Positions 1,712-19,291 of a DNA stretch of 32,000 bases are shown here, one piece after another. The notes below the pieces were generated by a model. That model made no database searches, was not told where the DNA came from, and saw only the letters and a list, made by a program, of their open reading frames with translations. A program made the translations under genes and the position numbers. Source of the DNA: Candidatus Thorarchaeota archaeon. GTDB taxonomy: Archaea > Asgardarchaeota > Heimdallarchaeia > Hodarchaeales > Hodarchaeaceae. The stretch covers positions 170,193 to 202,192 of the forward strand of contig JBHLRO010000004.1 of assembly GCA_048882505.1 (NCBI GenBank), read 5' to 3'. How positions within the stretch are numbered: the first letter of the stretch is position 1; every line of letters begins with the position of its first letter.

Positions 1712-3085
1712 CTATATCGCGATAGCGCGTCCCCTTGTTACGAGGAGTATGGGGATATCTGTAAGGTCTTGGTACATATCGGGATGTTCAGAGTGGATCG
1801 GAATTAGAAGGTCAGGGGAAATTGATTCTACGATGCGTTTCAAATCCCTTCGGGGGGCATGCCCAGACGCATGTAACTGTTTGAAATCTAGATGAAAGAA
1901 TTCGGTCCATTGTTGCAATCTCTTGAAATCTATTAGTCCCTCTTCATCAAAGGGATCTCCATGAGAGTAAATGAATACGGATTGGGCCTGTGGGTGGATA
2001 TCAATGAGATCTGTCAGATTCCAAAAATCGCAGTGGAAAATATATTCGGTCTGGTCAAAGTTTGGACTGTCGGTTGTTGTGATGTCTGGATCATCAAAAA
2101 CAGAAGTTTCCCACCTATAATAACGTGATTTTTGACGTTTATAAACCTCTATATGAGGATCAGAGAGGGAGGGGATATCCAAATGAACGTCATCTTGAAG
2201 TAACCGCAGTAGATGTGCTTGTCTCGGCGGGATGAGCAACTTCCGATCCGTGGCTTTCGCAGACAAGTAGATGGAACGGAAGCGATCGATGTCCCGAAGC
2301 GAATAATTTGCGATTACTAGACCTTCTGTTTCTGAAATCGCGATAGCCATATCCCGTTGAACGTTGGCTTCATTATCTTCGAAATCTTCATTGACATTTG
2401 TTCCTTCCATGAGAAGAGCATTTAAGTTGATGTGCTTTGCCTTTTTAATAAAATCTTCAGTAAGATCTTGCCGCCATCCATGTAAGCGCAAATCTCCAGA
2501 ATAACCAATGGTTATATCGGTGTTCCGATCTTCGACGATGAAGCCATAACTACCTGGAAGAGAATGATCAACATGGATAGGCGTTACGTCAACTCCTGGA
2601 ATCTGAATTACATCACCAGTCCTAAAAGTACGAACATTTGATGGCTGCTGTTCTGTGGCGACCTTGACGTACGGGCGTCCGAATCTAGGGCGTGAGGTCT
2701 CCTGAATGGACTGTATGATGGTCTTTGCGGTTTCTCCCATGTATACTGGAATTCGTTCGTTTAGTAAATTGAGGTTACCGAAATGGTCTATATGAGCGTG
2801 TGAGAGGAAACAAGAATGAATGTGGAGATTGGAGGCTGCTTTAGGAGGAAATTCCTTTTGAAAGTCTTCAGCGTATAGTTCGGGAATGGCTGGAATGATA
2901 TCGAATTCCAACAGGTCTTTTAATCCGATTTTCGTTCTTGGCTGCAAAAATCCTGAAAAATAGATGTTTTCACGAGAAAAAGATCGACCGAAATCCAAAA
3001 GCAGATTGGCTGAATCCATTGCCAAAAGGAAAGCATTCCCTCCGATCTCATTCACACCTCCTAATGCGGTGATTTTCATAACCAT
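1712..3085 (-). CDS. Metallo-beta-lactamase / beta-CASP hydrolase, RNase J-like
   Basis: ALGGVNEIGGN start, LLDFG, HAHIDH (HxHxDH), HVDHS, YSGD, LMEGT, HASGH and PIHSE motifs in the expected order. Confidence 0.88.
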   Translation of the reverse strand: MVMKITALGGVNEIGGNAFLLAMDSANLLLDFGRSFSRENIYFSGFLQPRTKIGLKDLLEFDIIPAIPELYAEDFQKEFPPKAASNLHIHSCFLSHAHIDHFGNLNLLNERIPVYMGETAKTIIQSIQETSRPRFGRPYVKVATEQQPSNVRTFRTGDVIQIPGVDVTPIHVDHSLPGSYGFIVEDRNTDITIGYSGDLRLHGWRQDLTEDFIKKAKHINLNALLMEGTNVNEDFEDNEANVQRDMAIAISETEGLVIANYSLRDIDRFRSIYLSAKATDRKLLIPPRQAHLLRLLQDDVHLDIPSLSDPHIEVYKRQKSRYYRWETSVFDDPDITTTDSPNFDQTEYIFHCDFWNLTDLIDIHPQAQSVFIYSHGDPFDEEGLIDFKRLQQWTEFFHLDFKQLHASGHAPRRDLKRIVESISPDLLIPIHSEHPDMYQDLTDIPILLVTRGRAIAI

Positions 3086-3133: not shown

Positions 3134-3586
3134 TTAAACCAAGTACGTCACAAGGGCAAATCCCAAAGCTATTAGACCTAATACTTTAAATGCTAGGTTT
3201 CCAATTAATGAATCCCAGCTAAATTTTCCCACCTTTAATTTAATAAATCCAACCCAAACTCCACCATAGTTGAAGGCATCTGCAAATACGTGAGCAAATA
3301 AGGCACCGAAACTGCCAACCAATCCCATCCAAACGAGATCCATTTCAGGGGGGATCCATAGAAGTAGGCCTAAAGGGAGTCCGAACAAGAGGTTGTGCGT
3401 CCATTTACCTCTATGAGGAACAATCTGGTTGAATGCTATTCTTGAAATCTTTTGGTCATAATCGGGGAGACGAGAAAAGATTGGCGCGAGAATGAGCGTA
3501 CCTCCTGCCCATAGCCAGAAATCCAATCTATACAGTATGATGCCGACGAACCCCATCCCAAAAAGAATATGAGTTCTGCCCTTCAT
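3134..3586 (-). CDS. YdjM-like membrane-bound metal-dependent hydrolase
   Basis: GRTH, PDYD, HRGKWTHNL and HVFADAFNYGGV motifs separated by hydrophobic segments. Confidence 0.85.
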   Translation of the reverse strand: MKGRTHILFGMGFVGIILYRLDFWLWAGGTLILAPIFSRLPDYDQKISRIAFNQIVPHRGKWTHNLLFGLPLGLLLWIPPEMDLVWMGLVGSFGALFAHVFADAFNYGGVWVGFIKLKVGKFSWDSLIGNLAFKVLGLIALGFALVTYLV

Positions 3587-3854: not shown

Positions 3855-6785
3855 ATGAAAATCATTAACACCGTCTTTTTGGAGCGAAACAACGGAGATC
3901 TTAAGCTATTTGACCTCCAAAACCAAATAACTATTCAGTTGACGCTCTTTCGTCCTTGGGTGTTTTTTCCATTTTCTAGTGTTGAATATTATACACCTAT
4001 TCGGGTGATCAATCCCTTCCTGGTGGATGAAGTGGAAAATGTCTATGAAACAACCCCCGATACGCTGATTTTACTCAACCCAGACGTCCTGATCAATTCG
4101 CGTGCAATAACAAGTGCTGGTTCCTGTCCTCGTCGTGCATATATCGACCATATCTTGGGTGAGACTAAAACCAACCTTCCCATGGTTCGAGGATCTATAA
4201 TCCATGAGGCGTACTCAGATATTATTGCCAATTATACTCCCGCCCAAGATGCAATGGAAATTGCAATTGAAAGATTTGCGTTCATCCTGGATATTCTTGA
4301 AGTTAATCTGGAGGAATTAAGGAAGGATGTCCTCCGCGTATTAAGAGGTTTAGAGCTATCAGCCCCTACACTCCAATCAAAGACTGTGCAACCTGAGATC
4401 ACATTTCTTAGTCCAGAATTCGGAATTATGGGGCGTATCGATTACTGGAGTCCTGAAGAAATCTATGAGCTAAAGACGGGTCGAAGAATTCCCCAACGAA
4501 ACACATGGTTTTCCGATCTTCTCCAGACGGTGATTTACATGCACGGACTTAGTTCTAGTTCTGAAAAAGCGGTTACTAAAAGCTCGGTCATTTATTCAGG
4601 AGAAGGTATACCAGCGTTTCGTCAGACCAACCTTGATCAAACACTTCTACAACAAATACATATGGCGCGTAATTATTCCTATCTTGTTCAATTTTCTGGA
4701 TATATACCGAAGATCTTAGGGACTAGGGTCTGCGATCGATGTTTCAGCAAAGAGGAATGTCACATTCTCGGAGATATTTTTGATGAAAATGCATCCGCTC
4801 CATCTAGGGCGTTTCTCTATTTAACGCACTGGAGTAGGTTGACGGGCCTGGAACATACAAAGAATCGTCAAGATTTTTCATTTCTATGGAAATTATCACC
4901 CCAGGGACGAGTCAAGCTGGGAAAGGCTATTTCTGACCTTCAGTTGACTAAGAGAAACAAAAAGAAGAATCTCTACCTCTATAATGGTATTAACAATTCT
5001 GAACTCCGCCCAGGGCAGCTAGTTATCTTAAGTCAAGGAAATCCGATTTTAGATAACACTATGATGGCTACTATTGCAGAAATCAGTCGATCTAAGGTCA
5101 TTTTGAATAGCCAAGGGAAATTACCCAAGAAGGCGTTTATTGATGCATATTCATCTGATTTTCTCTTTCGCAGGCTTAACAAGAATCTGTTCGATATTAC
5201 TTTTGGAATTAGAAAAGACCACAAATCACACGACCTCATTATTAATGCCAAGAAACCGAGGTTCGGTTCTGGAACTGTTCAGGAGGTTCCTGGCTTTGAT
5301 AAAAGCCAATCAGATGCTATTCAGAAGGCTCTATCCGCTCTAGATTATTGCTTGATAGTTGGTCCAGCCGGTACAGGAAAGACGTACACCATAGCTAAAC
5401 TTGTCGAAATTTTACGCAGACAAGGTCAAACCATCCTACTGACCGCATATACAAATACAGCCGTCGACAACATGATAGATCTATATTTAGCACTCGTTGG
5501 GGATGACAAAAAGCAGGAAATCGTACGTTTCGGAAGCGAACATACGGTCTCCTCCTCTACAATCGATCTCTTGCCCCAAGAAAAAGGCTTGAAATTCCAC
5601 GAATTATTAAAAACTCCCATTTTAGCAGGTACCACGAGTACACTTTCTCGTAGCCTGTACGATGATCTAATAGTTGATACCGTAATCGTGGATGAAGCAT
5701 CACAGATGACAGAACCTTCCGTTCTAGCTGGGGTGACCAAAGGGACACGTTTCATTCTCGTAGGAGATGATAAACAATTGCCGCCGCTCATTCAAAACCC
5801 GAGGGCCGATCGTGAGGGATTGAGCACAAGCATGTTTGAACGGCTTAGGAAGGTGCATCCTGATGGAGTTGTCCAGTTACAATACCAATACCGTATGCAT
5901 AATGCCCTAATGGATTTCAGCAACAGAATGTTTTACCATGGAACAGTTTCGCCTGCTACGATACAGATTGGCAATCAGACTTTATGGGAGATATTGCCAG
6001 AAGACACGCCAGCTTTTTCCAGCGATCCAGTATATCAGACTATTCTTGATCCGAACCAACCATTGGTGTACGTCGGGATCCAAACGAATTTCGACAAGAA
6101 AAGACGCGTGAATCCTGAAGAGGCAGTTGCTGCGCACAAGATCGTTAATGCCTATCTTAAGATGGGAATCAAGGATGAAGATATCGGCGTCATTGCACCA
6201 TTTCGTGGCCAGGTTGCAGAAATTACCCGATTGGTCGGAACCGAAAGCGAGGTAGTCATTGATACAATTGATCGCTTCCAGGGCTCTGATAAGGAAGTTA
6301 TAATCCTATCGTTATGCACCCTAGTCCGTCCTCATATCCTGGAGGACGAACGTCGATTAAATGTAGCGCTTACACGAGCCAAAAGAAAGATGATTATACT
6401 AGGGGGACTTCCCCATTCAGAAAAAACGATCCCGCTTTTCCAGGACTTGTTTTCCCACATAGAACGGAACTACTCCTTTATTCTCTTGACGTCAACCCCT
6501 CCAAAATCAGAGGAACAGGATCTTGGACGGCGAGACGATGAGGATTCGGCCCTGATGCTTAGTACGGATATGGCCTATCAACCCCTCACTACGGATGATG
6601 TCATCCAAAGAGTGAAAGTACCAAAAGAAGAGCCCGTATGTGTTCTTTGCCAAGATCCAGTTCAGGATCAAACCTTGCTCAGATGCCCAATATGCAATCA
6701 GGCATACCACCTAGAGCACCTTCAGGATTGGTTAATGTCACAGGATTTTTGTGTAACCTGTCAGTCACATATCCAGCTTACTTAA
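3855..6785 (+). CDS. dna2: Dna2-like Fe-S nuclease / SF1 helicase with a C-terminal RING-type zinc finger
   Basis: LILLNPDVLI..SCPRRA (first Fe-S Cys), RGSIIHE, GRIDY..YELKTG (D-ExK), QTVIY, CDRCFSKEEC (other three Cys). Helicase motifs GPAGTGKT, DEASQ, VGDDKQLPP, QYRMH, TIDRFQG, RLNVALTRA. Terminal C-x2-C-x11-C-x2-C-x4-H-x2-H-x10-C-x2-C at 6639-6761. Confidence 0.9.
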   Translation: MKIINTVFLERNNGDLKLFDLQNQITIQLTLFRPWVFFPFSSVEYYTPIRVINPFLVDEVENVYETTPDTLILLNPDVLINSRAITSAGSCPRRAYIDHILGETKTNLPMVRGSIIHEAYSDIIANYTPAQDAMEIAIERFAFILDILEVNLEELRKDVLRVLRGLELSAPTLQSKTVQPEITFLSPEFGIMGRIDYWSPEEIYELKTGRRIPQRNTWFSDLLQTVIYMHGLSSSSEKAVTKSSVIYSGEGIPAFRQTNLDQTLLQQIHMARNYSYLVQFSGYIPKILGTRVCDRCFSKEECHILGDIFDENASAPSRAFLYLTHWSRLTGLEHTKNRQDFSFLWKLSPQGRVKLGKAISDLQLTKRNKKKNLYLYNGINNSELRPGQLVILSQGNPILDNTMMATIAEISRSKVILNSQGKLPKKAFIDAYSSDFLFRRLNKNLFDITFGIRKDHKSHDLIINAKKPRFGSGTVQEVPGFDKSQSDAIQKALSALDYCLIVGPAGTGKTYTIAKLVEILRRQGQTILLTAYTNTAVDNMIDLYLALVGDDKKQEIVRFGSEHTVSSSTIDLLPQEKGLKFHELLKTPILAGTTSTLSRSLYDDLIVDTVIVDEASQMTEPSVLAGVTKGTRFILVGDDKQLPPLIQNPRADREGLSTSMFERLRKVHPDGVVQLQYQYRMHNALMDFSNRMFYHGTVSPATIQIGNQTLWEILPEDTPAFSSDPVYQTILDPNQPLVYVGIQTNFDKKRRVNPEEAVAAHKIVNAYLKMGIKDEDIGVIAPFRGQVAEITRLVGTESEVVIDTIDRFQGSDKEVIILSLCTLVRPHILEDERRLNVALTRAKRKMIILGGLPHSEKTIPLFQDLFSHIERNYSFILLTSTPPKSEEQDLGRRDDEDSALMLSTDMAYQPLTTDDVIQRVKVPKEEPVCVLCQDPVQDQTLLRCPICNQAYHLEHLQDWLMSQDFCVTCQSHIQLT

Positions 6786-6825: not shown

Positions 6826-8568
6826 TTGCAGAATATTAATCAGAAGGAGTTAGGGGCATATTATACCCCAAGCGGAACAGCAAAACATCTGGTCCAGACT
6901 TCCCTCTCTGCTTTTTTCCTCCATGATATCCGGAATGCCACTGGAAAATTCTTTGTTTCGTTAGGTGACGCCTTATCAGCCAGTGATCAGAATGTCATCA
7001 ATCGCCTCGATCAAGCTGCCAGACAGATTAGAGTTTTGGATGGCGCGGTCGGGGACGGGCAGCTCATTCTCGCGGCATTGGAATTTCTCAGTCAAGTTCG
7101 TCAGGTAACCAACAGGCGCCTAATGGCTAAGGTTATCACCGAACATGATTTGTTGCGTGATATTGTACAGTCCAATCTATTTGCGATGGACATTGCCTCA
7201 ATGGCCGTTCAAGAATGTCGTGAAAATATCATCGCCTTATTCGGTCAGATTCAAAATTCAGAGAAAAACGCTATTAACACAAATATCATGCGAAACTTGA
7301 TACAAGGAAATTTCTTGGAATCTACTCTGGATAACTGGTCAAACCTGAAAGGAATCAAGGGGGTTGATATTGTACTCGGTAATCCTCCATGGGGTCGTAA
7401 TATACTTGACCAGAAGGAAAAATTCAGATGGAAAAAGGAATTTAATATTCAAAGTTCTCTTCGTAACCTAAACGTCTTTGAAATTTTCCTCCACAAGGCA
7501 ACGCATCTCCTCGCCCCTTCAAGGGGGATTTTGGGGTTCCTTCTGCCAAAAAACTTTACACGTTCTAATCATTACACAGCCTTAAGAGAATTTATCCTTA
7601 ATACCTACCAAATTTTGACACTCGACTTTTTTAACTTGTTTCAAGACGTAACACAGGAATTTATTTCCCTTGTCGCACGAAAAGCTGAACTAATACCTTC
7701 TGATCATAAAATCGTCGTTGATAAGAAAATTCAGATTCCCCAATTACTGTATAGCCAAACTATAGATTTCATTTTTACACGTGATTATAATTCGGAATTC
7801 CGACAAATCCATCAAGCTATTATACATAATTCACACCCCTTAGAATCGTTTGTTACGATCCGTCGTGGAGAAGAGCTTTCTAAAAAGGGAACGATTATGT
7901 TTTGCCCACGCTGCAAAGAATGGGTACCCTTTTCAAGCCGAAAAAGGGATACAATCTGTCCTCGTTGCACGAAAGCTATTCCAAAAACACAATTACAGCT
8001 ATATCACCTTATCAAATCTCGTCCTGATGATAAACATACAGAACATATACTGACCGGGTTAGATTTTGGTGAATTTGAGATTAAAACGACCCATTATTTC
8101 GATGATAGCGTCCCATTTTATTCCAAAAAGGACACTGGAATTTACAAATCGCCCAAACTGATAGTTCAAAAGATCAAACGTGTCCCATGTGCAGCATTTG
8201 ATGACGATTCTCATCGGACAACGCAAAATGTCTATAATCTGCAATTGAAATCAGATTATAAGGGGTCTCCTGAAATTCTATTTTATATTTTGGCGATTCT
8301 TAATTCGAGATTGATTCAATGGTATTATGAGAGGCAATTCAATCTTGGTTCTCATTACACAAATGCCATTAGCATCAGGAACTTACGTCGATTTCCCCTG
8401 AAAGATGCCAATCTACTGGAGGGTACGGGATTCGAGATCGTGAAATTGTCCAAATCATTATCCAATACTTCCACCTCATCTTCATCCTTCAAGACACTTT
8501 GCGAAAAGCTAGATACGGCTGTATTACAACATTTTGGGCTTTCCGACATTCAATTGCCCATTATTTAG
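6826..8568 (+). CDS. Gamma-class amino DNA methyltransferase (TaqI/Eco57I-like) with a CxxC-CxxC insertion and no endonuclease domain
   Basis: TTG start. GAYYTP (motif X), VLDGAVGDG (variant motif I), GNPPW (motif IV), TaqI_C-like tail (PKLIVQK...LAILNSRL). CPRC-x14-CPRC at 7903-7968. Confidence 0.85.
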   Translation: MQNINQKELGAYYTPSGTAKHLVQTSLSAFFLHDIRNATGKFFVSLGDALSASDQNVINRLDQAARQIRVLDGAVGDGQLILAALEFLSQVRQVTNRRLMAKVITEHDLLRDIVQSNLFAMDIASMAVQECRENIIALFGQIQNSEKNAINTNIMRNLIQGNFLESTLDNWSNLKGIKGVDIVLGNPPWGRNILDQKEKFRWKKEFNIQSSLRNLNVFEIFLHKATHLLAPSRGILGFLLPKNFTRSNHYTALREFILNTYQILTLDFFNLFQDVTQEFISLVARKAELIPSDHKIVVDKKIQIPQLLYSQTIDFIFTRDYNSEFRQIHQAIIHNSHPLESFVTIRRGEELSKKGTIMFCPRCKEWVPFSSRKRDTICPRCTKAIPKTQLQLYHLIKSRPDDKHTEHILTGLDFGEFEIKTTHYFDDSVPFYSKKDTGIYKSPKLIVQKIKRVPCAAFDDDSHRTTQNVYNLQLKSDYKGSPEILFYILAILNSRLIQWYYERQFNLGSHYTNAISIRNLRRFPLKDANLLEGTGFEIVKLSKSLSNTSTSSSSFKTLCEKLDTAVLQHFGLSDIQLPII

Positions 8569-9216: not shown

Positions 9217-11442
9217 TTAAGCCTCTTGACTGATTGGAGACATAAAAATCTCGGTACTAAGATCATCCAAGGTCTTGACTGCCTTTTTAGCCTTTGTGGT
9301 CTGCTTAACGATGTCCCAGATGAAACTTGAGTCTTTCGTTGTTTCTATGAACCTCTCTAATTTCTGTACAGCTGAATATGACTGGCCCTTGAATACAAAA
9401 CAGCATAGTATTTGCTCGGCCAGTGGTTTAATGATAAGCGTGTAATCCTTTACTCTTATCCGTTCTATAACTCCCGAAGCGGAGAAAGCTTCCTGAACAA
9501 AGCTATTGATTGCAGTAAGCAAATCTCCAATGATTCTATCGTCCAAAGCCTCCTTAGATGTAAGTTCCTTCCTAAAATGTACAGCTCCAGTATTTGAAAG
9601 CATTAAAAAAAGTACAGGTTCTTCTGCCGTAAATTCTGGAATTTCTTGTTTTTTCTGAATTATGTTGGACACCATATCCTCGAGTTCAGCCATTTCTAAC
9701 CTTTCTACCATACCCACATTTCGTTCTATTAGATCCTCCCATTTATTTAACTGATTCATAAGCCTATCAATGTCAGCTGATATTGCAATAGCTAGTCGCT
9801 GTAAACCTGTCTCCTCAGCGGTTTCCTGGGCTTGAGCCATTAGCTGTCGAGCCTTATTCAGGTCTAATTCCAACAAAGCCATTTGAGATTGGAGTCGTTG
9901 TGTGTTTATCAGATTTTTGAAAGAATTCTGGCTTTCTGCTATTTCTAATAGGCGGTCCAACAAAGAATTAATTTCGGCTACGACCTCTTCATTTCCTGTG
10001 GATTTTAATTCATCCAATAGAAGATCACAGAGATTCAGCATGGCTTGGACGGTATTCTGATGGTTAATGACTTCTTCTTCTGCTATTTTTTGGAAGATTT
10101 CTTGCGCCTCAGCCCTCTCAACCATACGGTCACTTGCCTTCAAGAATAACGCATGAGCCAACCGATTACCTTGGTTGACGATTTTATTATCTTCTCTTCC
10201 CGCAATTTCTCCCAGCTTGTCAAGATAGGTTTTGGCCTCAATCATTTTCCCATTCCGGATCGAGGCTTCAATCAGGTTCTCTAATGATCGCGCAATGTCA
10301 AGAGTGCTACCAACCGATTCTGAGAGAGATAATGCCCTTTTATAATATGAAATTGATTGTTCTAGCTCGCCACCCATTGTGTAGACATGACCGAGATTAT
10401 TCATAACGAGACTAAGTTCCAAATCATTTTCCAGTTGTTCGAAAATTTCCAGTCCTCGAGTGAAGGCTGATTCCGCTTCTTTAAGGTCCCCGATTTCTAT
10501 ATAAATAGCTCCCAGATTGTTTAATGATTCACCAATATCCCCCTTACTCTCGAGTTCTTCATAACTCTTCAAGGCTCGCTGTATATATTCAAGAGCGAGC
10601 GTCAATTCTCCCTTACTCGTGTAAATGTTTCCAAGATTTGAAAACATTGCGGCTTCGGTTTGTATGGATCCATATTTCTCATTAAGTTCCAATGCACGTT
10701 TAAGATATTCCAAGGCACGATCTAAATCTCCACGGTAGGAATGCATCATGCCTAAATTATTCATTATTTTGAAGGTAGGTCTTTCGTTTCCGAGCTCTTC
10801 ATACTTTGATAAGCTAAGCTGAAGATATTCCGATGCTTTATCGAGGGCTCCCTTAGAAGCATGAATAATACCAATTGCATTATATAAACCAGCAATAGGA
10901 AAATTTTTCTTCTTCAATCTCTGGTAGAGTTCCAAAGCCTCGGTTAGATACTCGAGTGCTGTATCTAGTTCCCCTTTTCTTCGCATTGCAATTCCTTTAA
11001 CCCTCAATAACGGGGCTCTGACTGCATTTGCAGAAATCGCTTCGGATTCTATATCATTGATAAGTTCCAAGGATTCGTTTATCTCTCCCAATCCTATCAA
11101 AGCATTCGCTTCAAGAATCGCAGCTTTCTTCTGTAATACCGGTAATCCATTGTGTTCGGCTGCCTTTTTCGTTTCTCGCGCAAGTTCAGCGCATTTTGTG
11201 TTTTCATCTTTCTCGAGCAGAATCTCACATTTTAACAACTGGTTCTCAAGGCGGATATGGGGTGGTATCTCCTCTTTCTGGAATAGCTCCTCAATTTGGG
11301 TAAGTGCATGATCAAGATTTCCTTGTTGGATAAGCGAATCTATTTGAGTCAGAGTTTGTTTATTTTTATCAATTCCTAGTTTTTCTTTAATCCACGTCAG
11401 AGAATCAGTTAAAAATGTAAAAGACACCGAATTTTCCTCCAT
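9217..11442 (-). CDS. TPR-repeat protein with C-terminal longin-like domain (paralog 1)
   Basis: Repeated TPR motifs (YNAIGIIHASKGALDKA, MNNLGMMHSYRGDLDRA, FSNLGNIYTSKGELTLA, LNNLGAIYIEIGDLKEA), a long helical region, then EEPVLFLML..G..F...LLTAINSFVQEAF...YTLII...CFVFKG (about 9217-9624). Confidence 0.85.
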   Translation of the reverse strand: MEENSVSFTFLTDSLTWIKEKLGIDKNKQTLTQIDSLIQQGNLDHALTQIEELFQKEEIPPHIRLENQLLKCEILLEKDENTKCAELARETKKAAEHNGLPVLQKKAAILEANALIGLGEINESLELINDIESEAISANAVRAPLLRVKGIAMRRKGELDTALEYLTEALELYQRLKKKNFPIAGLYNAIGIIHASKGALDKASEYLQLSLSKYEELGNERPTFKIMNNLGMMHSYRGDLDRALEYLKRALELNEKYGSIQTEAAMFSNLGNIYTSKGELTLALEYIQRALKSYEELESKGDIGESLNNLGAIYIEIGDLKEAESAFTRGLEIFEQLENDLELSLVMNNLGHVYTMGGELEQSISYYKRALSLSESVGSTLDIARSLENLIEASIRNGKMIEAKTYLDKLGEIAGREDNKIVNQGNRLAHALFLKASDRMVERAEAQEIFQKIAEEEVINHQNTVQAMLNLCDLLLDELKSTGNEEVVAEINSLLDRLLEIAESQNSFKNLINTQRLQSQMALLELDLNKARQLMAQAQETAEETGLQRLAIAISADIDRLMNQLNKWEDLIERNVGMVERLEMAELEDMVSNIIQKKQEIPEFTAEEPVLFLMLSNTGAVHFRKELTSKEALDDRIIGDLLTAINSFVQEAFSASGVIERIRVKDYTLIIKPLAEQILCCFVFKGQSYSAVQKLERFIETTKDSSFIWDIVKQTTKAKKAVKTLDDLSTEIFMSPISQEA

Positions 11443-11562
11443 TCGTGATTTCTTGAGTCATGGAAATTTGATAATCGAGTAAAGAAGAAAGGCTACTAGA
11501 GGGCAGAAAATGTGAATCGGCTATTATCCTTTTTGATAGGATGAATTTTCCGAAATCTCTGA

Positions 11563-13374
11563 TTATTCGGGGGATTTAACGGGGATTCCGGTGTTTATTA
11601 TAGCATTTTGAGCAAAAAAGCCAGACATGACTTGTGGGAGGTTATCTTTTTGCGAAGTTAGGAGGTACCTTGACACCAGTTCCAAAATCTCTGGGTTTTC
11701 GGATAACTCCATACCTATATTACTGGCGTCCGTCAAAGTTTTCAGAATGGTATCTGAGACACTGATAGCTTCCGTAAAGTTCCTAAGCTTTTGCATTGCG
11801 AAGTAAGATGGACCTTTGAACGCGTAACAGCACAGGAGAGATTTAAGAGGTCTTAAAAGCAAAGTATATTCTTGGTGTTTGATCCCTTCAATGGATCGAG
11901 ATTCTTCAAAAGCCTGCTGGGTAAAGGCATTAATAGCGGTAATAAATCCTCCGATAAGCTGATCTGCCATGAGCTGATCTGCCGCCACAAATTGTTTAGA
12001 AAAGATGCTCATTCCGCTCATCCCTAGGATCAAAAACAAAACAGGTTCCTCCTCTTGTAGGTCGGTACGTTCAGCTTTTTGCTTTATTAATCTGGTGACC
12101 ATACCCTCTAACTCTGCTAGTTCAAGTCTTTCGGCCATCGAAGCTCCCGTTTCTACGAATTCCTCCCATTTACTTGCGATCTCAGGGATCCGATCGAATT
12201 CCTGGGACACGATCACTTCTAGCGATTTAAACCCGTGTTTTTCCGAAATTTCTTGTGCCTGTAACAATTTTTGCCTAGCTAGATTAATATCGAGCTCATA
12301 GAGTGCGATTTTTGACTGTATGAGATAGATTTCGGCCAGGAGGGGTGTTAAAGATTGACGTTCGGCCCGCTCTGACAGTTGGTGCAATAAACCTTTTATT
12401 TCGGTTAAAACGTTCTCATTTCCACTTGTGGCAAACTCCTGAAGGAGCAATTCACATAATTGCTTTTGTGCCATAAGGAGATACTCTTGCGAGATGTTTT
12501 CCTCTGTCGTTAGCTGATTAAAAGTTCGTTGAGCTTCCGCTCGTTTAACAAGGCGAGTCGAGGAAGTCAGTACATGGGCCTTGGCTAACCGGTTAATTCG
12601 GTCTATTGCTTGATTTTGTTCTTTAGCGTTAATGTTTTCTAATTGCTTAAGAAATTGTTCTGATTCCTCCGTTGATTTAAGAAGGTTTGTCAAACAGGCA
12701 AGATTAAATAAAACCACGGACAGTTCCATCGGATTTTCCGATGGATCTAGTCCAATCAGGCTGTTTTTGTAGTTTAGTTCTGCTTTATCTACGGCGCCTG
12801 TCAATAGATGTAATGTAGCAATATTATTTTGGTATAAACTAATTAAGGGCTTATCATCAATCTTCATAGCCAAGTCTATCCCCTTTTGATAATAATCACG
12901 AGCCTCTTCTAATTCTCCTCGCATTTGATGGATATTGGCGAGATTATTATAGCAAATGGTTTTTTCCAATTCGTGATCATCGAGTTGTTCGAAAATTTCT
13001 AGGCTATTTTTGATCAATTCGAAAGCCAAGTCCAATTCTCCTTTGAGAATGGAATAATAACCTTCATTTACCGTCAAAGTAGCGGTTGTGGGTATATTGT
13101 CGCATTTCTTCCGGATTCCACCCATTCTTTCGATATAGCTTCCCGCTACATCGAGATCACCCCGGTCAATAAAAAATAGGGCCGTACTATTTAGAATCTC
13201 AAGGATAGGATCGATGAGGGTTTTATTTTGAAGGTCAACCGAGCCTAATAGCACTTCTAATCTTTCCGACGCTTCATCCAGAGCTCCATCATGATGCATC
13301 TGCTTTATTAGGGCGGATTCCTTTATTATATCTGCTGGTTTAGAAAAGCGTTTCCTACGTGAGAAGATAGACAA
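11563..13374 (-). CDS. TPR-repeat protein with C-terminal longin-like domain (paralog 2)
   Basis: TTG start. TPRs (YNNLANIHQMRGELEEA, YQNNIATLHLLTGAVDKA). Shares RAEAQ, LCxLLL, ERLExAELE and EEPVLFL blocks with 9217..11442. Confidence 0.85.
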   Translation of the reverse strand: MSIFSRRKRFSKPADIIKESALIKQMHHDGALDEASERLEVLLGSVDLQNKTLIDPILEILNSTALFFIDRGDLDVAGSYIERMGGIRKKCDNIPTTATLTVNEGYYSILKGELDLAFELIKNSLEIFEQLDDHELEKTICYNNLANIHQMRGELEEARDYYQKGIDLAMKIDDKPLISLYQNNIATLHLLTGAVDKAELNYKNSLIGLDPSENPMELSVVLFNLACLTNLLKSTEESEQFLKQLENINAKEQNQAIDRINRLAKAHVLTSSTRLVKRAEAQRTFNQLTTEENISQEYLLMAQKQLCELLLQEFATSGNENVLTEIKGLLHQLSERAERQSLTPLLAEIYLIQSKIALYELDINLARQKLLQAQEISEKHGFKSLEVIVSQEFDRIPEIASKWEEFVETGASMAERLELAELEGMVTRLIKQKAERTDLQEEEPVLFLILGMSGMSIFSKQFVAADQLMADQLIGGFITAINAFTQQAFEESRSIEGIKHQEYTLLLRPLKSLLCCYAFKGPSYFAMQKLRNFTEAISVSDTILKTLTDASNIGMELSENPEILELVSRYLLTSQKDNLPQVMSGFFAQNAIINTGIPVKSPE

Positions 13375-13492: not shown

Positions 13493-16441
13493 TTACGTCG
13501 TCTTTTTCCTGGCTTTTTTACGGAATATATAGGTACCAAGGAGGGTTAACAGTGTCAAACTGAAAATTGCTGGGATTCCAGGAGTTAATACATGTTTCAT
13601 TACCTGTGCTATCACTGATGAGGAACTGTCACCTTGAGAGGGTTGTACGACTGCGAGCGCTTGATCGGCATTGATTATTGTAATGTTGTCGTATCCATAG
13701 AATAACAAGAAGTCGCCTTTCAGATAGCCAGTCACGTTCATCTTGACGACCGTGGGAGTAGAAGAGACTACTGTTTCCAAATATGCTGCAACTTCCGATC
13801 TGTTAAACTTGACGAAAATTTTGTCTGGATGTTGTAGCTGGACATACTCCGCATAGATGTTTCCGTCAGTTCGAATAGTGCTGCCATTTACGTTGCTCGC
13901 AGAATATCCTTCTGGAAGAAAGATCTTAGCGGACACCCAATTTCCTTCCTTCTGTAGATTGAAGGTTTGGGATTCCCAAACGACCACTGCATCAAGATCA
14001 GCAAACTGAATATCAATATTATCGAGATCCTGTACGGGAAGGGCATTAGGAGTGTAATCAAAGTTACCTCCATCAATGGCATAAGGCTGATCTGCCAAAG
14101 TATCATTGTTGTCATCCGTATTATCGTTATCAACCAGATAATTGAAGGCGAAACTGTTCAGGAGCCCCCAATCTGATGCTTGAGACGAACCACCGATATT
14201 GTTTCCGACAAGGTCATTAGTTTCAATGGAGTTCTGGTCTGAACCAAATGCAAGACTAATCGCATACGCGGTTTGGGAATAGAGGACATTCCCTATGACT
14301 TTGGTATGTGACGATCCCTCTAAGAATATTCCATTTGCACCGCTGTTACTGATCTGGTTGTTTGAGATCGCGTTGAAATTCGACAATTGGAGATATACTG
14401 CGTTTCCAGATACGCTGAAGATTCTGTTATCGGAAATGGTGTTATGATGTGACGGATCGAGCCAGATGGCATGGCTGCCAGAACTTAAAGCCACACGGGA
14501 ACGAATTCTCATACCGCTTCCTGTAGGTTCACTGTAATCTCCATAGATGTCATTGTCAGTGATAGAGTTCCAGGAGGAGTTGGCGAGGAAGACCCCACTG
14601 TCACCATCTGAATTATCGATGGAATTCCCAGTGAGATCGTTACCATCAGAATCCTCCAGGAAGACTCCGTAGCCACTAAAGCCTGAGAGGGTATTGTTAG
14701 TGATGGTATTATTACTGGAGGGATCGAGCCAGATGGCGTGGCTGCCAGAGCTTAGTGCTACACGGGAACGAATCCCGTCGCCCGTCGCAGTTGTACCAGC
14801 CGATGTGCTGTAAACCTCATTGTCAGTGATTGAGTTCCAGGAGGAGTTGGCGAGGAAGACCCCACTGTCACCATCTGAATTATCGATGGAATTTCCAGTG
14901 AGGTCATTGTCATCTGAATCCTCCAGGAAAACCCCGTATCCCGTATACCCTGAGAGGGTATTGTTGGCGATGGTATTATTACTGGAGGGATCAAGCCAGA
15001 TGGCGTGGCTGCCAGAGCTTAGCGTCACCCTTGAGCGAATCCCATCGCCCGTCGCAGTCGTACCAGCCGATGTGCTGTACACCTCGTTGTCAGTAATGGA
15101 GTTCCAGGAGGAGTTGGCGAGGAAGACCCCACTGTCACCATCTGAATTATCGATGGAGTTTCCAGTGAGATCGTTGTCATCAGAGCCTTCTAAAAAGATC
15201 CCGTATCCCGTATACCCTGAGAGGGTATTGTTGCCGACGGTATTATTACTGGAGGGATCGAGCCAAATGGCGTGGCTGCCAGAGCTTAGAGCCACACGAG
15301 AGCGAATCCCGCCGCCAGTTGCCGTCGTACCAGCTGATGTGCTGTACACCTCGTTGTCAGTAATAGAGTTCCAGGAGGAGTTGGCAAGGAAGACCCCACT
15401 GTCACCATCTGAATTATCGATAGAATTTCCAGTGAGATCGTTGTCATCAGAAGCTTCTAAAAAGATCCCGTATCCAGTGTAGTCTGAGATGTTATTATTG
15501 GAGACGGTGTTATTACTGGAGGGATCGAGCCAAATGGCGTGGCTGCCAGAACTTAGAGCCACGCGTGAGCGAATCCCTTCGGTAAACTCTGGGTTGTCAA
15601 CTTCAAAGATATCGTTATCATCTACAATATTGTCATCGGATCCTTCCAGAAAGATCCCGACTCCACCGTCGTTGTCTATTTCATTTCCTTCGACAGTGTT
15701 GTCAGAGGAGCTAAGCAGGTAAATCGAACTACCTGACATGCCAGTAATATGATTATTGGAAATCGTATTGTGATTGGAGGGATCGAGCCAAATGGCATGA
15801 CTGCCAGAGCTTAACGCCGTAGTACGTACACTTAGGCGGACTGAAGTAGCAGCAGAAGTTGATACAAAACCAAAAACATAATTCTCGGTGATTGTTATGT
15901 CATGCGAGTTATAGAGAAATATTCCTGTAGCGCAATTGACTATCGTGTTATCGTAAATGGTTCCATGAATTACATTAAATAAGGCAATCCCGTCGGGTAA
16001 ACCATTTACACCATCAATTAAATTGTGTTGAATAATGAAATGTAAGGTTGTGTCGTTTATCTGGATACCAGCGGCGGGGACAGGCTTTTTCCCGTGTAAT
16101 CGTGCGTTTACGGTAATTATGAGATTCTCAATAATATAAGGGCTGGCTTCTGATCCGTCCCCAGGCCACTTGAACCGTTTTGCTTGTTTCACAAAGTCAT
16201 CATCACCTTCTATGAGGATCGGGTTATCACCCTTTTTACCAGCATATAATACTTGGAAATCCTCAGCATCCCAATTGTACCACTTGGAATCTTCTTCCAA
16301 AGGAATATTTCCCCCGTTGGGATTATTTAGAGATGTTATCAATACAGATGTCAAATCTGTTGGTTGAAAAGCCAAATTAATTATATTTAAGCTTGCCAAC
16401 AGGCATAAAAAGATAGCAGCGCGTTTTATTTTGAAATTCAT
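13493..16441 (-). CDS. Secreted, C-terminally anchored right-handed parallel beta-helix (NosD/CASH-like) surface protein with internal tandem repeats
   Basis: Signal peptide MNFKIKRAAIFLCLLASL, WPGDGSEASPYIIEN cap, many GIxL..S.NNTI.xN coils, a beta-rich domain near the C-terminus, then a TM helix and basic tail RKKARKKTT. Confidence 0.9.
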   Translation of the reverse strand: MNFKIKRAAIFLCLLASLNIINLAFQPTDLTSVLITSLNNPNGGNIPLEEDSKWYNWDAEDFQVLYAGKKGDNPILIEGDDDFVKQAKRFKWPGDGSEASPYIIENLIITVNARLHGKKPVPAAGIQINDTTLHFIIQHNLIDGVNGLPDGIALFNVIHGTIYDNTIVNCATGIFLYNSHDITITENYVFGFVSTSAATSVRLSVRTTALSSGSHAIWLDPSNHNTISNNHITGMSGSSIYLLSSSDNTVEGNEIDNDGGVGIFLEGSDDNIVDDNDIFEVDNPEFTEGIRSRVALSSGSHAIWLDPSSNNTVSNNNISDYTGYGIFLEASDDNDLTGNSIDNSDGDSGVFLANSSWNSITDNEVYSTSAGTTATGGGIRSRVALSSGSHAIWLDPSSNNTVGNNTLSGYTGYGIFLEGSDDNDLTGNSIDNSDGDSGVFLANSSWNSITDNEVYSTSAGTTATGDGIRSRVTLSSGSHAIWLDPSSNNTIANNTLSGYTGYGVFLEDSDDNDLTGNSIDNSDGDSGVFLANSSWNSITDNEVYSTSAGTTATGDGIRSRVALSSGSHAIWLDPSSNNTITNNTLSGFSGYGVFLEDSDGNDLTGNSIDNSDGDSGVFLANSSWNSITDNDIYGDYSEPTGSGMRIRSRVALSSGSHAIWLDPSHHNTISDNRIFSVSGNAVYLQLSNFNAISNNQISNSGANGIFLEGSSHTKVIGNVLYSQTAYAISLAFGSDQNSIETNDLVGNNIGGSSQASDWGLLNSFAFNYLVDNDNTDDNNDTLADQPYAIDGGNFDYTPNALPVQDLDNIDIQFADLDAVVVWESQTFNLQKEGNWVSAKIFLPEGYSASNVNGSTIRTDGNIYAEYVQLQHPDKIFVKFNRSEVAAYLETVVSSTPTVVKMNVTGYLKGDFLLFYGYDNITIINADQALAVVQPSQGDSSSSVIAQVMKHVLTPGIPAIFSLTLLTLLGTYIFRKKARKKTT
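14451..15813. repeat. Intragenic tandem repeat: four 267-bp (89 aa) units plus one diverged 258-bp unit; six copies of SSGSHAIWLDPS
   Basis: The GGATC(G/A)AGCC anchor occurs at 14454, 14721, 14988, 15255, 15522 and 15780. Confidence 0.95.
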
Positions 16442-16927: not shown

Positions 16928-17704
16928 CTATAAAAACTGGTCCAGTGATGTTTTACGTATAGGAATTGTTACCTGTTGGCCAAACTGAGCCTTTTGTCGT
17001 ATTATTGGCTCGTATTCTTTTCGTAATTCAAATCCCACCACATCTCGTCCAGTTCTCCGAGCAGCCAAAATGGTTCCCCCGCTTCCACTAAACACGTCTC
17101 CAACCAAATCGCCAGGAGAACTGGATGTTAAAACAAGTTTTTCTAAAAGAATTAGAGGTAATTGGCAAGGATGCCCTTTGATTCTATCCGGATCATTCCC
17201 GCGATTGTATTCTGGCCAAAAGAGTACATCACCGGTGTCTCCTCCAGTTTGGCTGAAAACATAGTTTGTTTTATCCTTAACCAGGAGAAGGATATGGTAA
17301 TGACTTGTCACAAACCGACGTTTCGTATATACTCCCCATGAAAACTGCCAAACAGCATGATTTATCATATGAAAATCTGTGGTTTCGAGAGCATTGAGAA
17401 TAGGTAGAAGGTTTGTCCAGCCCGAGATGATATACAAACTACCTGTGTCTTTCAATGCGTGATAGCATGCGTTTATCCACTTCTGCGAAAAATGATAGTA
17501 TTCTTCTGGTGTGAATTCATCTGCATACAGGTCATAATCCTCGGCCCCATATTCGTGACTCGATTTATTGAACTTGATGCCAAATGGGGGATCCGCAATA
17601 AGTAGATCGAACTTTCGGGCCATAGCTTTGATGGGTAGCGTCTCAATCAAATCGCCTATAATCAATTCATATTTGGATGGTGGCATAAGAATTCCACTAA
17701 TCAC
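16928..17704 (-). CDS. Beta-class N6/N4 DNA methyltransferase
   Basis: ADPPF (motif IV) precedes GHPCQLP and DVFSGSGGT (motif I). The GTG at 17704 overlaps the HAD stop (GTGA); alternative ATG at 17686. Confidence 0.9.
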   Translation of the reverse strand: MISGILMPPSKYELIIGDLIETLPIKAMARKFDLLIADPPFGIKFNKSSHEYGAEDYDLYADEFTPEEYYHFSQKWINACYHALKDTGSLYIISGWTNLLPILNALETTDFHMINHAVWQFSWGVYTKRRFVTSHYHILLLVKDKTNYVFSQTGGDTGDVLFWPEYNRGNDPDRIKGHPCQLPLILLEKLVLTSSSPGDLVGDVFSGSGGTILAARRTGRDVVGFELRKEYEPIIRQKAQFGQQVTIPIRKTSLDQFL

Positions 17705-18369: not shown

Positions 18370-18422
18370 TAAAACTGACAGTCCTCGAAGTTCTGGAGAT
18401 TAATAGAGTGTTGTGATAGAAC

Positions 18423-18429
18423 TTTATAA
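18423..18429 (+). promoter_or_regulatory. Probable TATA box (TTTATAA) of the SPPY methyltransferase, followed by a T10 tract at 18436-18445
   Basis: 32-38 nt upstream of ATG 18461. Confidence 0.45.
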
Positions 18430-18460
18430 TTCATATTTTTTTTTTGGTTATGGGTTTGAA

Positions 18461-19291
18461 ATGGGTAACCAGTCGCAGATTGATCCACGAAATAAGCTCA
18501 ATGCCTTAACCGGCAAAAATTGGGTTCAGTTTACCAAGTCATGGTTTATAGAGGATGGAAAACCAAGCGAAATATCCCCAGAGATTGAGCTCCATCCTGC
18601 TTCGTTCCCTCCTCCCATGATACGTGAATTCATTCAATTCTTTACGAAACCAGATCAATGGGTTCTTGATCCCTTTTTGGGAACAGGATCAACTTTGGTC
18701 GCCTGTGAAGAAACAAGAAGGAAGGGGGTGGGTATAGAATTGTATGAGAAATATGCCGAGACCGCAAGAAGCAGAACTGGTCTTGAAGTTATTCTAGGGG
18801 ACGCACGCAATGTTGTATCGAAGTTGAGAGATGAAAGGAAACAATTCCACCTCTGTATTACTTCCCCGCCTTATTGGAACATTTTGAGGAAGACTAAAGA
18901 CTATAATCAACAAGCGCGTATGAAAAAAGGTCTTGATCTGAAATATGGTGACAATCCAGCTGACTTGGGCCTTGTTTCAAATTACCATGATTTTTTGAAC
19001 GAAATTTTGACGTTATTTTCGGAAATCAGCTCCCTTCTAACCCCTAAAGGACATTTAGTTATATTTGCACAGAATATCCGCGACGGAGGCAATGTTCAAC
19101 CCCTGGCATTTGACCTTACAATACGTTTGAAAGAGACCGATAAATTTAGGTACCTTGGAGAAAGAATTTGGCTCCAAAACCAGAAAACATTACGCCCATA
19201 CGGGTACCCTTACTCCTTCGTATCGAACGTTCACCACCACTTTTGTCTAATCTTTCAAAAAAAAAGTAGTTCTTCAGGTTGCGCTCATTAA
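18461..19291 (+). CDS. Circularly permuted amino DNA methyltransferase, probably m4C
   Basis: Order is HPASFP, then LDPFLGTGST (motif I), then TSPPYW (motif IV). SPPY is typical of m4C enzymes. The ORF track starts at GTG 18413; ATG 18461 fits the TATA box better. Confidence 0.88.
   Translation: MGNQSQIDPRNKLNALTGKNWVQFTKSWFIEDGKPSEISPEIELHPASFPPPMIREFIQFFTKPDQWVLDPFLGTGSTLVACEETRRKGVGIELYEKYAETARSRTGLEVILGDARNVVSKLRDERKQFHLCITSPPYWNILRKTKDYNQQARMKKGLDLKYGDNPADLGLVSNYHDFLNEILTLFSEISSLLTPKGHLVIFAQNIRDGGNVQPLAFDLTIRLKETDKFRYLGERIWLQNQKTLRPYGYPYSFVSNVHHHFCLIFQKKSSSSGCAH
19257..19265 (-). terminator. T9 terminator candidate for the ABC-2 operon, embedded in the 3' end of the opposite-strand methyltransferase
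   Basis: A9 on the plus strand, 9-17 nt past the permease stop at 19274. Confidence 0.4.

Follow-up and report, generated by a model that had tools for sequence, protein, structure and literature searches.

A Dna2 nuclease-helicase of Heimdallarchaeia with a C-terminal RING-type finger, a putative DNA-coupled ubiquitin ligase

We describe here a Dna2-type nuclease-helicase which is fused to a RING-type zinc finger (Dna2-RING). The gene lies on a stretch of 32,000 nucleotides, hereafter called the window, from a Candidatus Thorarchaeota archaeon which GTDB places in the Hodarchaeaceae (order Hodarchaeales, class Heimdallarchaeia; assembly GCA_048882505.1, contig JBHLRO010000004.1, positions 170,193 to 202,192 of the forward strand). 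The open reading frame (ORF) at 3855-6785 encodes a complete Dna2 nuclease-helicase, and judged by sequence comparison its tail is a RING and neither a PHD finger nor a ribbon. The fusion is real and conserved, it is restricted to this Heimdall-group class and it is constant in the Dna2 clade across four families. As function of the tail we consider the recruitment of a ubiquitin-conjugating enzyme (E2) most likely, that is, a putative ubiquitin ligase (E3) activity coupled to the engagement of Dna2 with DNA, and we would give this reading a probability of about one half. A first-pass annotation, made by a model from the letters of the window alone, had proposed a DNA-end-sensing ligase and did not recognise the fusion as described. 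It had also named what would speak against such a ligase, namely a finger folded as PHD or ribbon without an E2 surface, a genome lacking ubiquitin, the activating enzyme (E1) and E2, or a misassembly. The literature which we searched, with a coverage that is thin for subscription journals, likewise contains no account of a Dna2 fused to a RING.

The Dna2 nature of the enzyme body is seen in conserved residues, domain profiles and a structural model. We aligned 44 full-length sequences, taking in relatives of only 26-30% identity. In this alignment C91, C293 and C302 of the Dna2/Cas4-type iron-sulphur (Fe-S) motif are invariant and C296 is nearly so. The RecB-type nuclease motifs D...ExK/QxxxY are kept in the same way, with D196, K207, Q224 and Y228 invariant and E205 nearly invariant, and both Walker A (G503-T510) and Walker B (D613-E614) of the motor are invariant. 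Pfam recognises the Dna2 family (PF08696, residues 24-141, E = 7.7e-13) and PDDEXK_1 (residues 87-247, E = 8.3e-6) as well as, on the motor, AAA_11 (E = 1.6e-31) and AAA_12 (E = 2.5e-42). Among solved structures mouse DNA2 is closest in sequence (E = 1.5e-61); the PDB search aligns it to residues 468-876, thus to the helicase part only. An AlphaFold2 model of the full-length protein was computed from the 44-row alignment and reaches a mean predicted local distance difference test score (pLDDT) of 89 and a predicted template modelling score (pTM) of 0.87. Its best structural matches with Foldseek are again mouse Dna2 (5ean/5eaw/5eax, E = 1.6e-55, template modelling score 0.74/0.69), whose fold joins nuclease, stalk and barrel and both RecA domains into a single cylinder. 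Since this match spans about 1030 columns, the nuclease half, which the PDB sequence search left unaligned, is also Dna2-like. The next structural family, Ighmbp2/Upf1, follows at E = 1e-34, about 20 orders of magnitude weaker, and matches the motor alone. The first-pass annotation had read a full Dna2 architecture with four Fe-S cysteines, a D-ExK nuclease and an Upf1-like superfamily 1 (SF1) motor, and the profiles, the invariant residues and the fold match agree with it.

Between motor and finger the same annotation had seen an acidic low-complexity linker, a description which stands only in part. Residues 878-928 are mildly acidic, with about 25% Asp or Glu, but they are not truly of low complexity, and disorder is confined to residues 881-898 (pLDDT below 50 in the full-length model). 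The linker is poorly conserved among the homologues, and its pLDDT is also low in a separate model of the tail.

The finger itself reads C929-x2-C932-x11-C944-x2-C947-x4-H952-x2-H955-x10-C966-x2-C969 and covers nucleotides 6639-6761. W959 stands four residues past H955. This spacing, including the Trp four past the second His, had been given correctly in the first-pass annotation and is exact in the translation of the ORF. None of the eight ligands varies among 46 homologous tails with identities of 21-80%, which is far past what chance would give, and 43 of these tails have the Trp. The ligand order C4H2C2 is a variant of C3H2C3. A HMMER alignment to Arkadia equates H952 and H955 with ligands 5 and 6 and C947 with ligand 3. 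The position of the canonical His4 is then occupied by Q949, and C944 must therefore provide the fourth ligand.

That the finger belongs to the RING domains is indicated above all by the sequence profiles. For each of the 46 tails zf-RING_2 is the best Pfam match, always with E <= 0.01 and at best with 9.9e-8, whereas PHD is matched by 18 of the 46 and at weaker E. When the tail profile is compared with the PDB sequences, Arkadia comes first (2.3e-11), followed by HRD1/synoviolin (1e-10), gp78 (6e-10) and then RNF165, RLIM, RNF38 and RNF13. RING E3 ligases occupy all of the best 32 places, to E = 1.3e-4, and no PHD protein ranks better than 2.9e-4. The AlphaFold2 model of the tail has a pLDDT of 81-89 over the finger. 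With this model Foldseek places RNF13, RNF38, HRD1, gp78 and EL5 on top (probability about 1.0); the E value is only about 0.02 because the finger is such a small domain. A search with VIA, which is independent of Foldseek, returns the Nse1 RING as best match (Z 7.0, root-mean-square deviation (rmsd) 3.5, 55 aligned). Further matches are the Prp19 U-box and RNF4, RING1B, FANCL and Slx1, the last four with Z 5.2-5.6. Nearly all entries listed by Foldseek and VIA are RING or U-box domains. For a small domain a Z below 8 is middling, so the RING call rests mainly on the sequence profile.

One could still take the finger for a PHD-like or other reader domain or for a nucleic-acid-binding zinc module. 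The spacing C-x2-C...C-x2-C-x4-H-x2-[H] does resemble the C4HC3 pattern of PHD, and Pfam reports for the tail of the window a PHD match of 17.6-18.4 bits, which is below the cut-off of 24, next to weak matches to PHDvar_NSD, rbx1 and ribbon models. However, ligand 6 is a His, the Trp sits at ligand 6 + 4 as in RINGs and no Trp is found two residues before ligand 7. PHF7, with two entries, is the sole PHD protein among the VIA matches listed, and none is present among the 50 Foldseek matches listed. Together with the profile searches, in which PHD falls clearly behind RING-H2, this makes a finger of PHD type or another zinc module improbable. The RING-type finger of the first-pass annotation is thus recovered by fold search and profiles alike, and with L931 and W959 it retains residues of an E2 surface.

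How widespread is the fusion? A word-indexed search gave about 30 full-length homologues of 962-1007 amino acids (aa), all of which carry the finger; the named ones are from Hodarchaeales or Heimdallarchaeota. When 1.84 billion representatives are also searched exhaustively, the count of Dna2 homologues with a finger, which the first-pass annotation had suggested to make, comes to 46 proteins (960-1010 aa where complete). Twenty-two of the 46 are full-length matches in a search of representatives at 50% identity. We scanned 400 genomes from the phylum and met the full Dna2 with finger only in the class of the window. It is present in 11 of 22 genomes of the own genus, in the single genome of family f3, in all 31 genomes of family f4 and in 9 of 12 genomes of family f6. 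In the other Asgard families among the 400 genomes no full Dna2 with finger was found, and the matches there are to the helicase only. Reading six f6 loci in six frames, we recovered the finger in five, while the sixth locus is interrupted or runs into the end of its contig. A misassembly was therefore rejected, since the fusion recurs in 46 proteins from independent assemblies and in the six-frame readings across four families.

The nearest finger-less relatives that can be named are a Bathyarchaeota protein of 843 aa and a Sericytochromatia protein of 934 aa. Most of the nearest RING-less relatives are metagenome proteins, and several eukaryotic Dna2 are named besides these two. We calculated a quick unrooted maximum likelihood tree (LG+G4) from a fast alignment from which the finger had been cut together with some of the linker; its deep branches are tentative. 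In this tree a single state change suffices for the 24 finger-bearing rows, which fall with the one Bathyarchaeota protein into a starred clade (96). Some bacterial Dna2-like proteins group with the RING clade as well. Eukaryotic Dna2, with Choanoeca, Salpingoeca, Capsaspora and Marchantia among its members, forms a separate starred clade (100) that has no specific sister relation to the RING clade. None of the 21 representatives of the eukaryotic clade has a C-terminal finger, in line with the earlier statement that eukaryotic Dna2 has no RING.

A ligase needs a surface for the E2. The positions of the finger which form this surface are L931, W959, V967 and Q970, the latter two being Pro and Lys or Arg in the deeper clades. 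The residue two positions after the first ligand (L931 in the window) is hydrophobic in 46 of 46 tails and thus in every clade. Among the 18 tails of the deeper clades Pro follows the seventh ligand in 17 and Lys or Arg follows the eighth, at the so-called linchpin, in 16, which corresponds to the C-P-x-C-[KR] of active RINGs. In view of the ubiquitin genes of the genome and of the likeness of the finger to small archaeal RING proteins with E3 activity, such an activity of the tail appears plausible.

The genome from which the window was taken (4.3 Mb, 94.5% complete) has a ubiquitin system; the first-pass annotation had noted that such systems are encoded by Asgard archaea. E1, E2 and ubiquitin are all detected: there are four UQ_con, three ubiquitin-like and five ThiF-type E1-like genes, and three of the five E1-like genes adjoin ubiquitin in clusters on the contigs C11, C9 and C18. 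Besides E2s at C9:36145-36624 and C18:2368-2913 the genome has its most canonical E2 at C11:19154-19654. Y60, P61, P65, W92 and P94 of this protein are conserved in 44 homologues, and it has a Phe in loop 4 and S-P-A in loop 7, which we take to be RING contacts as in UbcH5. Most of its homologues are about 151 aa long, and for this reason the true start is probably 15 codons past the first ATG. The named eukaryotic matches nearest to this E2 include UBE2T, which serves FANCL, a RING protein of DNA repair, as E2; the bearing on the archaeal enzyme may be nil.

A complex prediction with the E2 of the genome had been proposed as a check. We combined the E2 from C11:19154-19654 with the tail and two zinc ions and obtained a score of 0.55, whereas the best of three controls scored 0.00. 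The contacts agree between the runs by at least 13% and the partner has a pLDDT of at least 82. Of 80 solved complexes 58 pass the mark applied here, and of 110 mismatched pairs 2 do. Scores of 0.60 or less include 7 of the 80 solved complexes and both of the passing mismatches. The prediction thus passes the mark, but what it lends to a contact with the E2 is weak.

Other genes of this genome are related to the subject. Six further proteins end in a C-x2-C...C-x2-C-x4-H-x2-H...W...C-x2-C finger (Table 1), among them one of 1038 aa as well as membrane proteins and proteins that resemble tetratricopeptide repeat (TPR) proteins. Two of the six are encoded within the ubiquitin/E1/E2 clusters of C11 and C9. 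Unlike the Dna2 of the window, four of the six retain C-P-x-C. Within C11:33441-37905 a ubiquitin ending in GG (33441-33674) adjoins an E1-like gene (region of 33828-34556), and a protein of UQ_con fold follows about 3 kb further. This UQ_con protein, at C11:37162-37905, has a coiled-coil tail and no catalytic Cys; it looks like the UEV-Vps23 protein of the ubiquitin clusters of Asgard archaea that are linked to the endosomal sorting complex (ESCRT).

We suggest that Dna2-RING could work as follows. The Dna2 body would provide an Fe-S nuclease for 5' flaps and ends of single-stranded DNA (ssDNA) and a 5'-3' motor of superfamily 1B (SF1B). The flexible linker of about 55 residues would tether the archaeal RING-H2-like domain to this body. 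The RING could then recruit a ubiquitin-charged E2, for which the canonical UBC enzyme at C11:19154-19654 is the best candidate. Finally, Dna2 engaged on ssDNA flaps or resected ends might attach ubiquitin to itself or to replication and repair proteins in its vicinity, and the mark could serve turnover or signalling. In a more specific form the Heimdallarchaeial Dna2 is predicted to be a DNA-structure-coupled ubiquitin ligase, in which threading of a flap or end brings in the charged E2 (E2~Ub) and Dna2, RPA or the clamp becomes marked. We put this specific form forward tentatively and with less confidence than E2 recruitment as such.

The main alternative is that the RING tail is a docking or regulatory module without any ubiquitin transfer, which binds the clamp, RPA or a scaffold or which folds back and gates the nuclease or the helicase. 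Several points weigh against a ligase and have to be considered here. The 28 tails of the own lineage never have Pro after the seventh ligand (Val, Ala or Thr is found there), and 27 of them have Gln as linchpin. In the protein of the window V967 and Q970 stand at these places, so the basic linchpin is absent. In known RINGs such replacements reduce the activation of E2~Ub. The tail of the window itself reaches 23.2-24.0 bits on zf-RING_2, which is below the cut-off of 27.3. As each of the 83 class genomes has E2 genes, the co-occurrence of E2 and Dna2-RING is uninformative. By the calibration given above a docking pass this low would be more often wrong than right unless the complex was likely beforehand. 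In addition, RING-E2 complexes are well represented among the solved structures; the pass may therefore be memory and would indicate likeness more than binding. The repair RINGs of Slx1, Nse1 and FANCL are among the fold matches, and in proteins which, like Slx1, combine a nuclease with a RING, the RING is known as a partner-binding rather than a catalytic module. The Slx1 RING binds Slx4 and mediates autoinhibition.

A docking module would also account for the fact that the Hodarchaeales replaced the Pro and the linchpin and then conserved Val or Ala and Gln. In the full-length model residues 900-976 have a pLDDT of 66-90, at a pTM of 0.87 for the whole, which is at most compatible with an intramolecular contact. 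It is harder to reconcile with a docking or regulatory role that the E2 face, with the hydrophobic residue and the Trp, is conserved in all clades and that the deeper clades show the canonical C-P-x-C-K. The PDB sequences most similar to the tail belong to active RING-H2 ligases, and archaeal RINGs of the same type have been shown to be E3s (PMC5654768). Nor is a Gln at the linchpin incompatible with activity. In RNF38 the exchange R454Q leaves E2 binding unaffected; E2-Ub is bound with an affinity about 12-fold lower, an effect that Lys has too, and ubiquitylation is reduced yet measurable (PMC12326332). As Gln attenuates RNF38 without killing it, and as both Pro and linchpin are replaced, we read the Hodarchaeales tail as a ligase that is tuned, weakened or adapted to another E2. 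From its residues the Hodarchaeales RING is probably weaker or E2-retuned as a ligase in comparison with the deeper C-P-x-C-K clades, and a shift to a non-catalytic role is possible. Taken together, a non-catalytic tail is a serious possibility that falls short of an even chance, and we prefer E2 recruitment.

The locus offers still another explanation, which is that Dna2-RING forms a restriction-modification-like or defence pair with its neighbour, or that the protein is a defence helicase-nuclease of the ProA or Hhe kind. An adenine methylase of the Eco57I/TaqI_C type starts on the same strand 41 nt past the Dna2 stop, and both genes adjoin in 9 of 10 congeneric genomes which have Dna2-RING. 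Dna2-RING is moreover patchy within the genus, and helicase models of PADLOC match its motor domain. We note, however, that the two genes are not inherited together. In five congeneric genomes, which are 91-96% complete, Dna2-RING was unmatched with the nuclease half and with the whole protein as query. No Dna2 remnant was seen in these five genomes in the gaps of 190-1970 nt between the gene for the YdjM-family membrane protein and the methylase (Table 1); in G067 and G075 the gaps measure 1.3-2 kb. The clean presence or absence at a fixed chromosomal site within the genus argues that Dna2-RING is dispensable. The methylase is still beside YdjM in the five Dna2-less genomes and hence independent of Dna2-RING. 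The f4 loci that were fetched, from the family in which every genome has Dna2-RING, showed no methylase within flanks of 1.5 kb. The two-gene system with the methylase was thus rejected on synteny. The NCBIfam models give 59 bits versus 1500 for ProA and 45 versus 2000 for Hhe, and DUF4011 and DUF3320 are unmatched in the Pfam search. Prometheus/ProA, Hhe and the other PADLOC systems were rejected because the matches are limited to generic helicase or Cas4 parts. A defence function of this kind is very improbable.

Table 1. Positions of the Dna2-RING gene with its domains, of its neighbours and of related loci (positions without prefix refer to the window, C to contigs of the same genome, G to other genomes of the genus).
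Feature	Position	Strand	Basis or remark
Dna2-RING gene, whole	3855..6785	+	single ORF, 976 codons plus stop
beta-rich N-terminal domain, residues 1-75 (within Pfam Dna2 N-terminal region)	3855..4079	+	PF08696 at 24-141; model strands 3-74
PD-(D/E)XK nuclease with 4-Cys Fe-S motif, residues ~76-310	4080..4784	+	PDDEXK_1, Cas4 models, invariant columns
Fe-S Cys codon C91	4125-4127	+	
Fe-S Cys codon C293	4731-4733	+	
Fe-S Cys codon C296	4740-4742	+	
Fe-S Cys codon C302	4758-4760	+	
helical stalk and beta-barrel joining nuclease and helicase, residues ~311-480	4785..5294	+	model secondary structure; within mouse Dna2 match
SF1B (Upf1-like) helicase 1A + 2A, residues 481-872	5295..6470	+	AAA_11, AAA_12, PDB mouse DNA2, invariant motifs
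linker, residues 873-928	6471..6638	+	low pLDDT, poor conservation, residue count
RING-H2-like finger C929...C969 and final seven residues	6639..6782	+	profiles, tail model, fold searches
metallo-beta-lactamase/RMMBL protein	1712-3085	-	upstream of Dna2-RING
YdjM-family membrane protein	3134-3586	-	upstream of Dna2-RING
Eco57I/TaqI_C-type adenine methylase	6826-8568	+	starts 41 nt past Dna2 stop
further finger protein	C30:721-2034		
further finger protein	C14:83139-83477		
further finger protein	C8:18222-21338		
further finger protein	C2:302384-303379		
further finger protein	C11:28615-28953		
further finger protein	C9:34064-35173		
Dna2-less site	G067:C1:4697632-4701083		
Dna2-less site	G075:C301:2117-6235		
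Dna2-less site	G071:C23:8001-10605		
Dna2-less site	G064:C133:59517-61713		
Dna2-less site	G058:C30:74474-76670		

Further observations were made in the window. It has four DNA methyltransferase genes in its 32 kb, at 6826-8568, 16928-17704, 18413-19291 and 23389-25197. Two are of the Eco57I/TaqI_C type and two match N6_N4_Mtase, one of them in the C-terminal part of the model only. No restriction nuclease was recognised beside any of the four. The methylase at 6826 carries a CxxC...CxxC zinc-ribbon insert at residues ~353-384 and its place beside YdjM is conserved in all the congeneric genomes that we examined. On the minus strand the stretch 9217-13374 encodes two large adjoining proteins with TPR repeats (741 and 603 aa). 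A NosD/right-handed beta-helix protein of 982 aa follows on the same strand (13493-16441); its short match to Ribosomal_L19e looks spurious. This gene lies within the GC-richest stretch of the window (0.465-0.475, the bulk of the window being at about 0.40).

That ubiquitin governs proteins of replication and repair counts as a hallmark of eukaryotes. Here the archaeal class closest to the eukaryotes has fused a RING of the ligase type to a core DNA-processing enzyme and has kept it in four families. The fusion hints at ubiquitin tagging tied to DNA maintenance before the eukaryotes. If the tail is an active E3, Dna2-RING would be a single-polypeptide system for the origin of the coupling between ubiquitin and DNA, with all parts available from one genome. 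If the DNA-coupled ligase is true in its specific form, the link between ubiquitin and genome maintenance would predate eukaryotes and the job would later have been split among Rad18, Rad5 and RFWD3. The two kinds of tails, C-P-x-C-K in the deeper clades versus C-V-T-C-Q in the Hodarchaeales, are in addition a natural experiment in the catalytic tuning of RINGs. If the tail is no E3, it would be a further case of a RING which serves as docking module on a nuclease.

Among the known systems mouse DNA2 (5EAN/5EAW/5EAX) is closest to the enzyme body, sharing with Dna2-RING the domain order, the fold, the Fe-S cysteines, the nuclease motifs and the SF1B motor. Eukaryotic Dna2 has an N-terminal extension and no C-terminal finger, whereas Dna2-RING shows the reverse. 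A nucleic-acid motor and a RING E3 in one polypeptide are known from Rad5, HLTF and SHPRH, which act at replication forks in the ubiquitylation of PCNA. These proteins, however, have a superfamily 2 (SF2)/Snf2 motor into which the RING is inserted and no nuclease, while Dna2-RING combines an SF1B motor and a nuclease with a RING tethered at the C-terminus. The first-pass annotation, which ascribed SF2 motors to the eukaryotic helicase-RING fusions, goes too far here, since the SF1 helicase Upf1 has a RING-like CH domain.

Slx1 (PDB 4ZDT) is a nuclease for DNA structures with a C-terminal C4HC3-like RING, to which the tail model can be fitted with Z 5.2 and an rmsd of 1.8 over 51 residues. It has a GIY-YIG nuclease and no helicase, and Dna2-RING differs by another nuclease family plus a helicase. 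Prometheus is a defence protein reported from Asgard archaea which also contains a Dna2 nuclease, and in this protein DUF4011 and DUF3320 flank the helicase and the inserted nuclease (PMC13700489). Its architecture differs from that of Dna2-RING, which has no match to DUF4011 or DUF3320.

The finger finally resembles the small RING proteins of archaea (srfp). These are RING-H2-like and have a hydrophobic residue after ligand 1 and the Trp, all of which is common to the Dna2 finger. The small RING protein of Caldiarchaeum subterraneum is a demonstrated E3 in which the C3/H4 ligands are shifted and an extra Cys may be present, and Ile30, Trp58 and Arg69 matter for its activity (PMC5654768). In our reading of the description in that paper, the shifted ligands and the extra Cys would correspond to the C-x2-C of the Dna2 finger. 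A Helarchaeial RING E3 has been reconstituted as well (bioRxiv 10.1101/2023.07.25.550441). The genome of the window has paralogous fingers of this kind within its ubiquitin clusters on C11 and C9. The functionally important Arg69 of srfp is replaced by Gln in the Dna2 tail of the Hodarchaeales. The srfp are small, stand alone and are encoded in ubiquitin operons, whereas the Dna2 finger is the tail of a 976-aa enzyme encoded far from the ubiquitin clusters. Their E3 activity with archaeal E1, E2 and ubiquitin is established by experiment.

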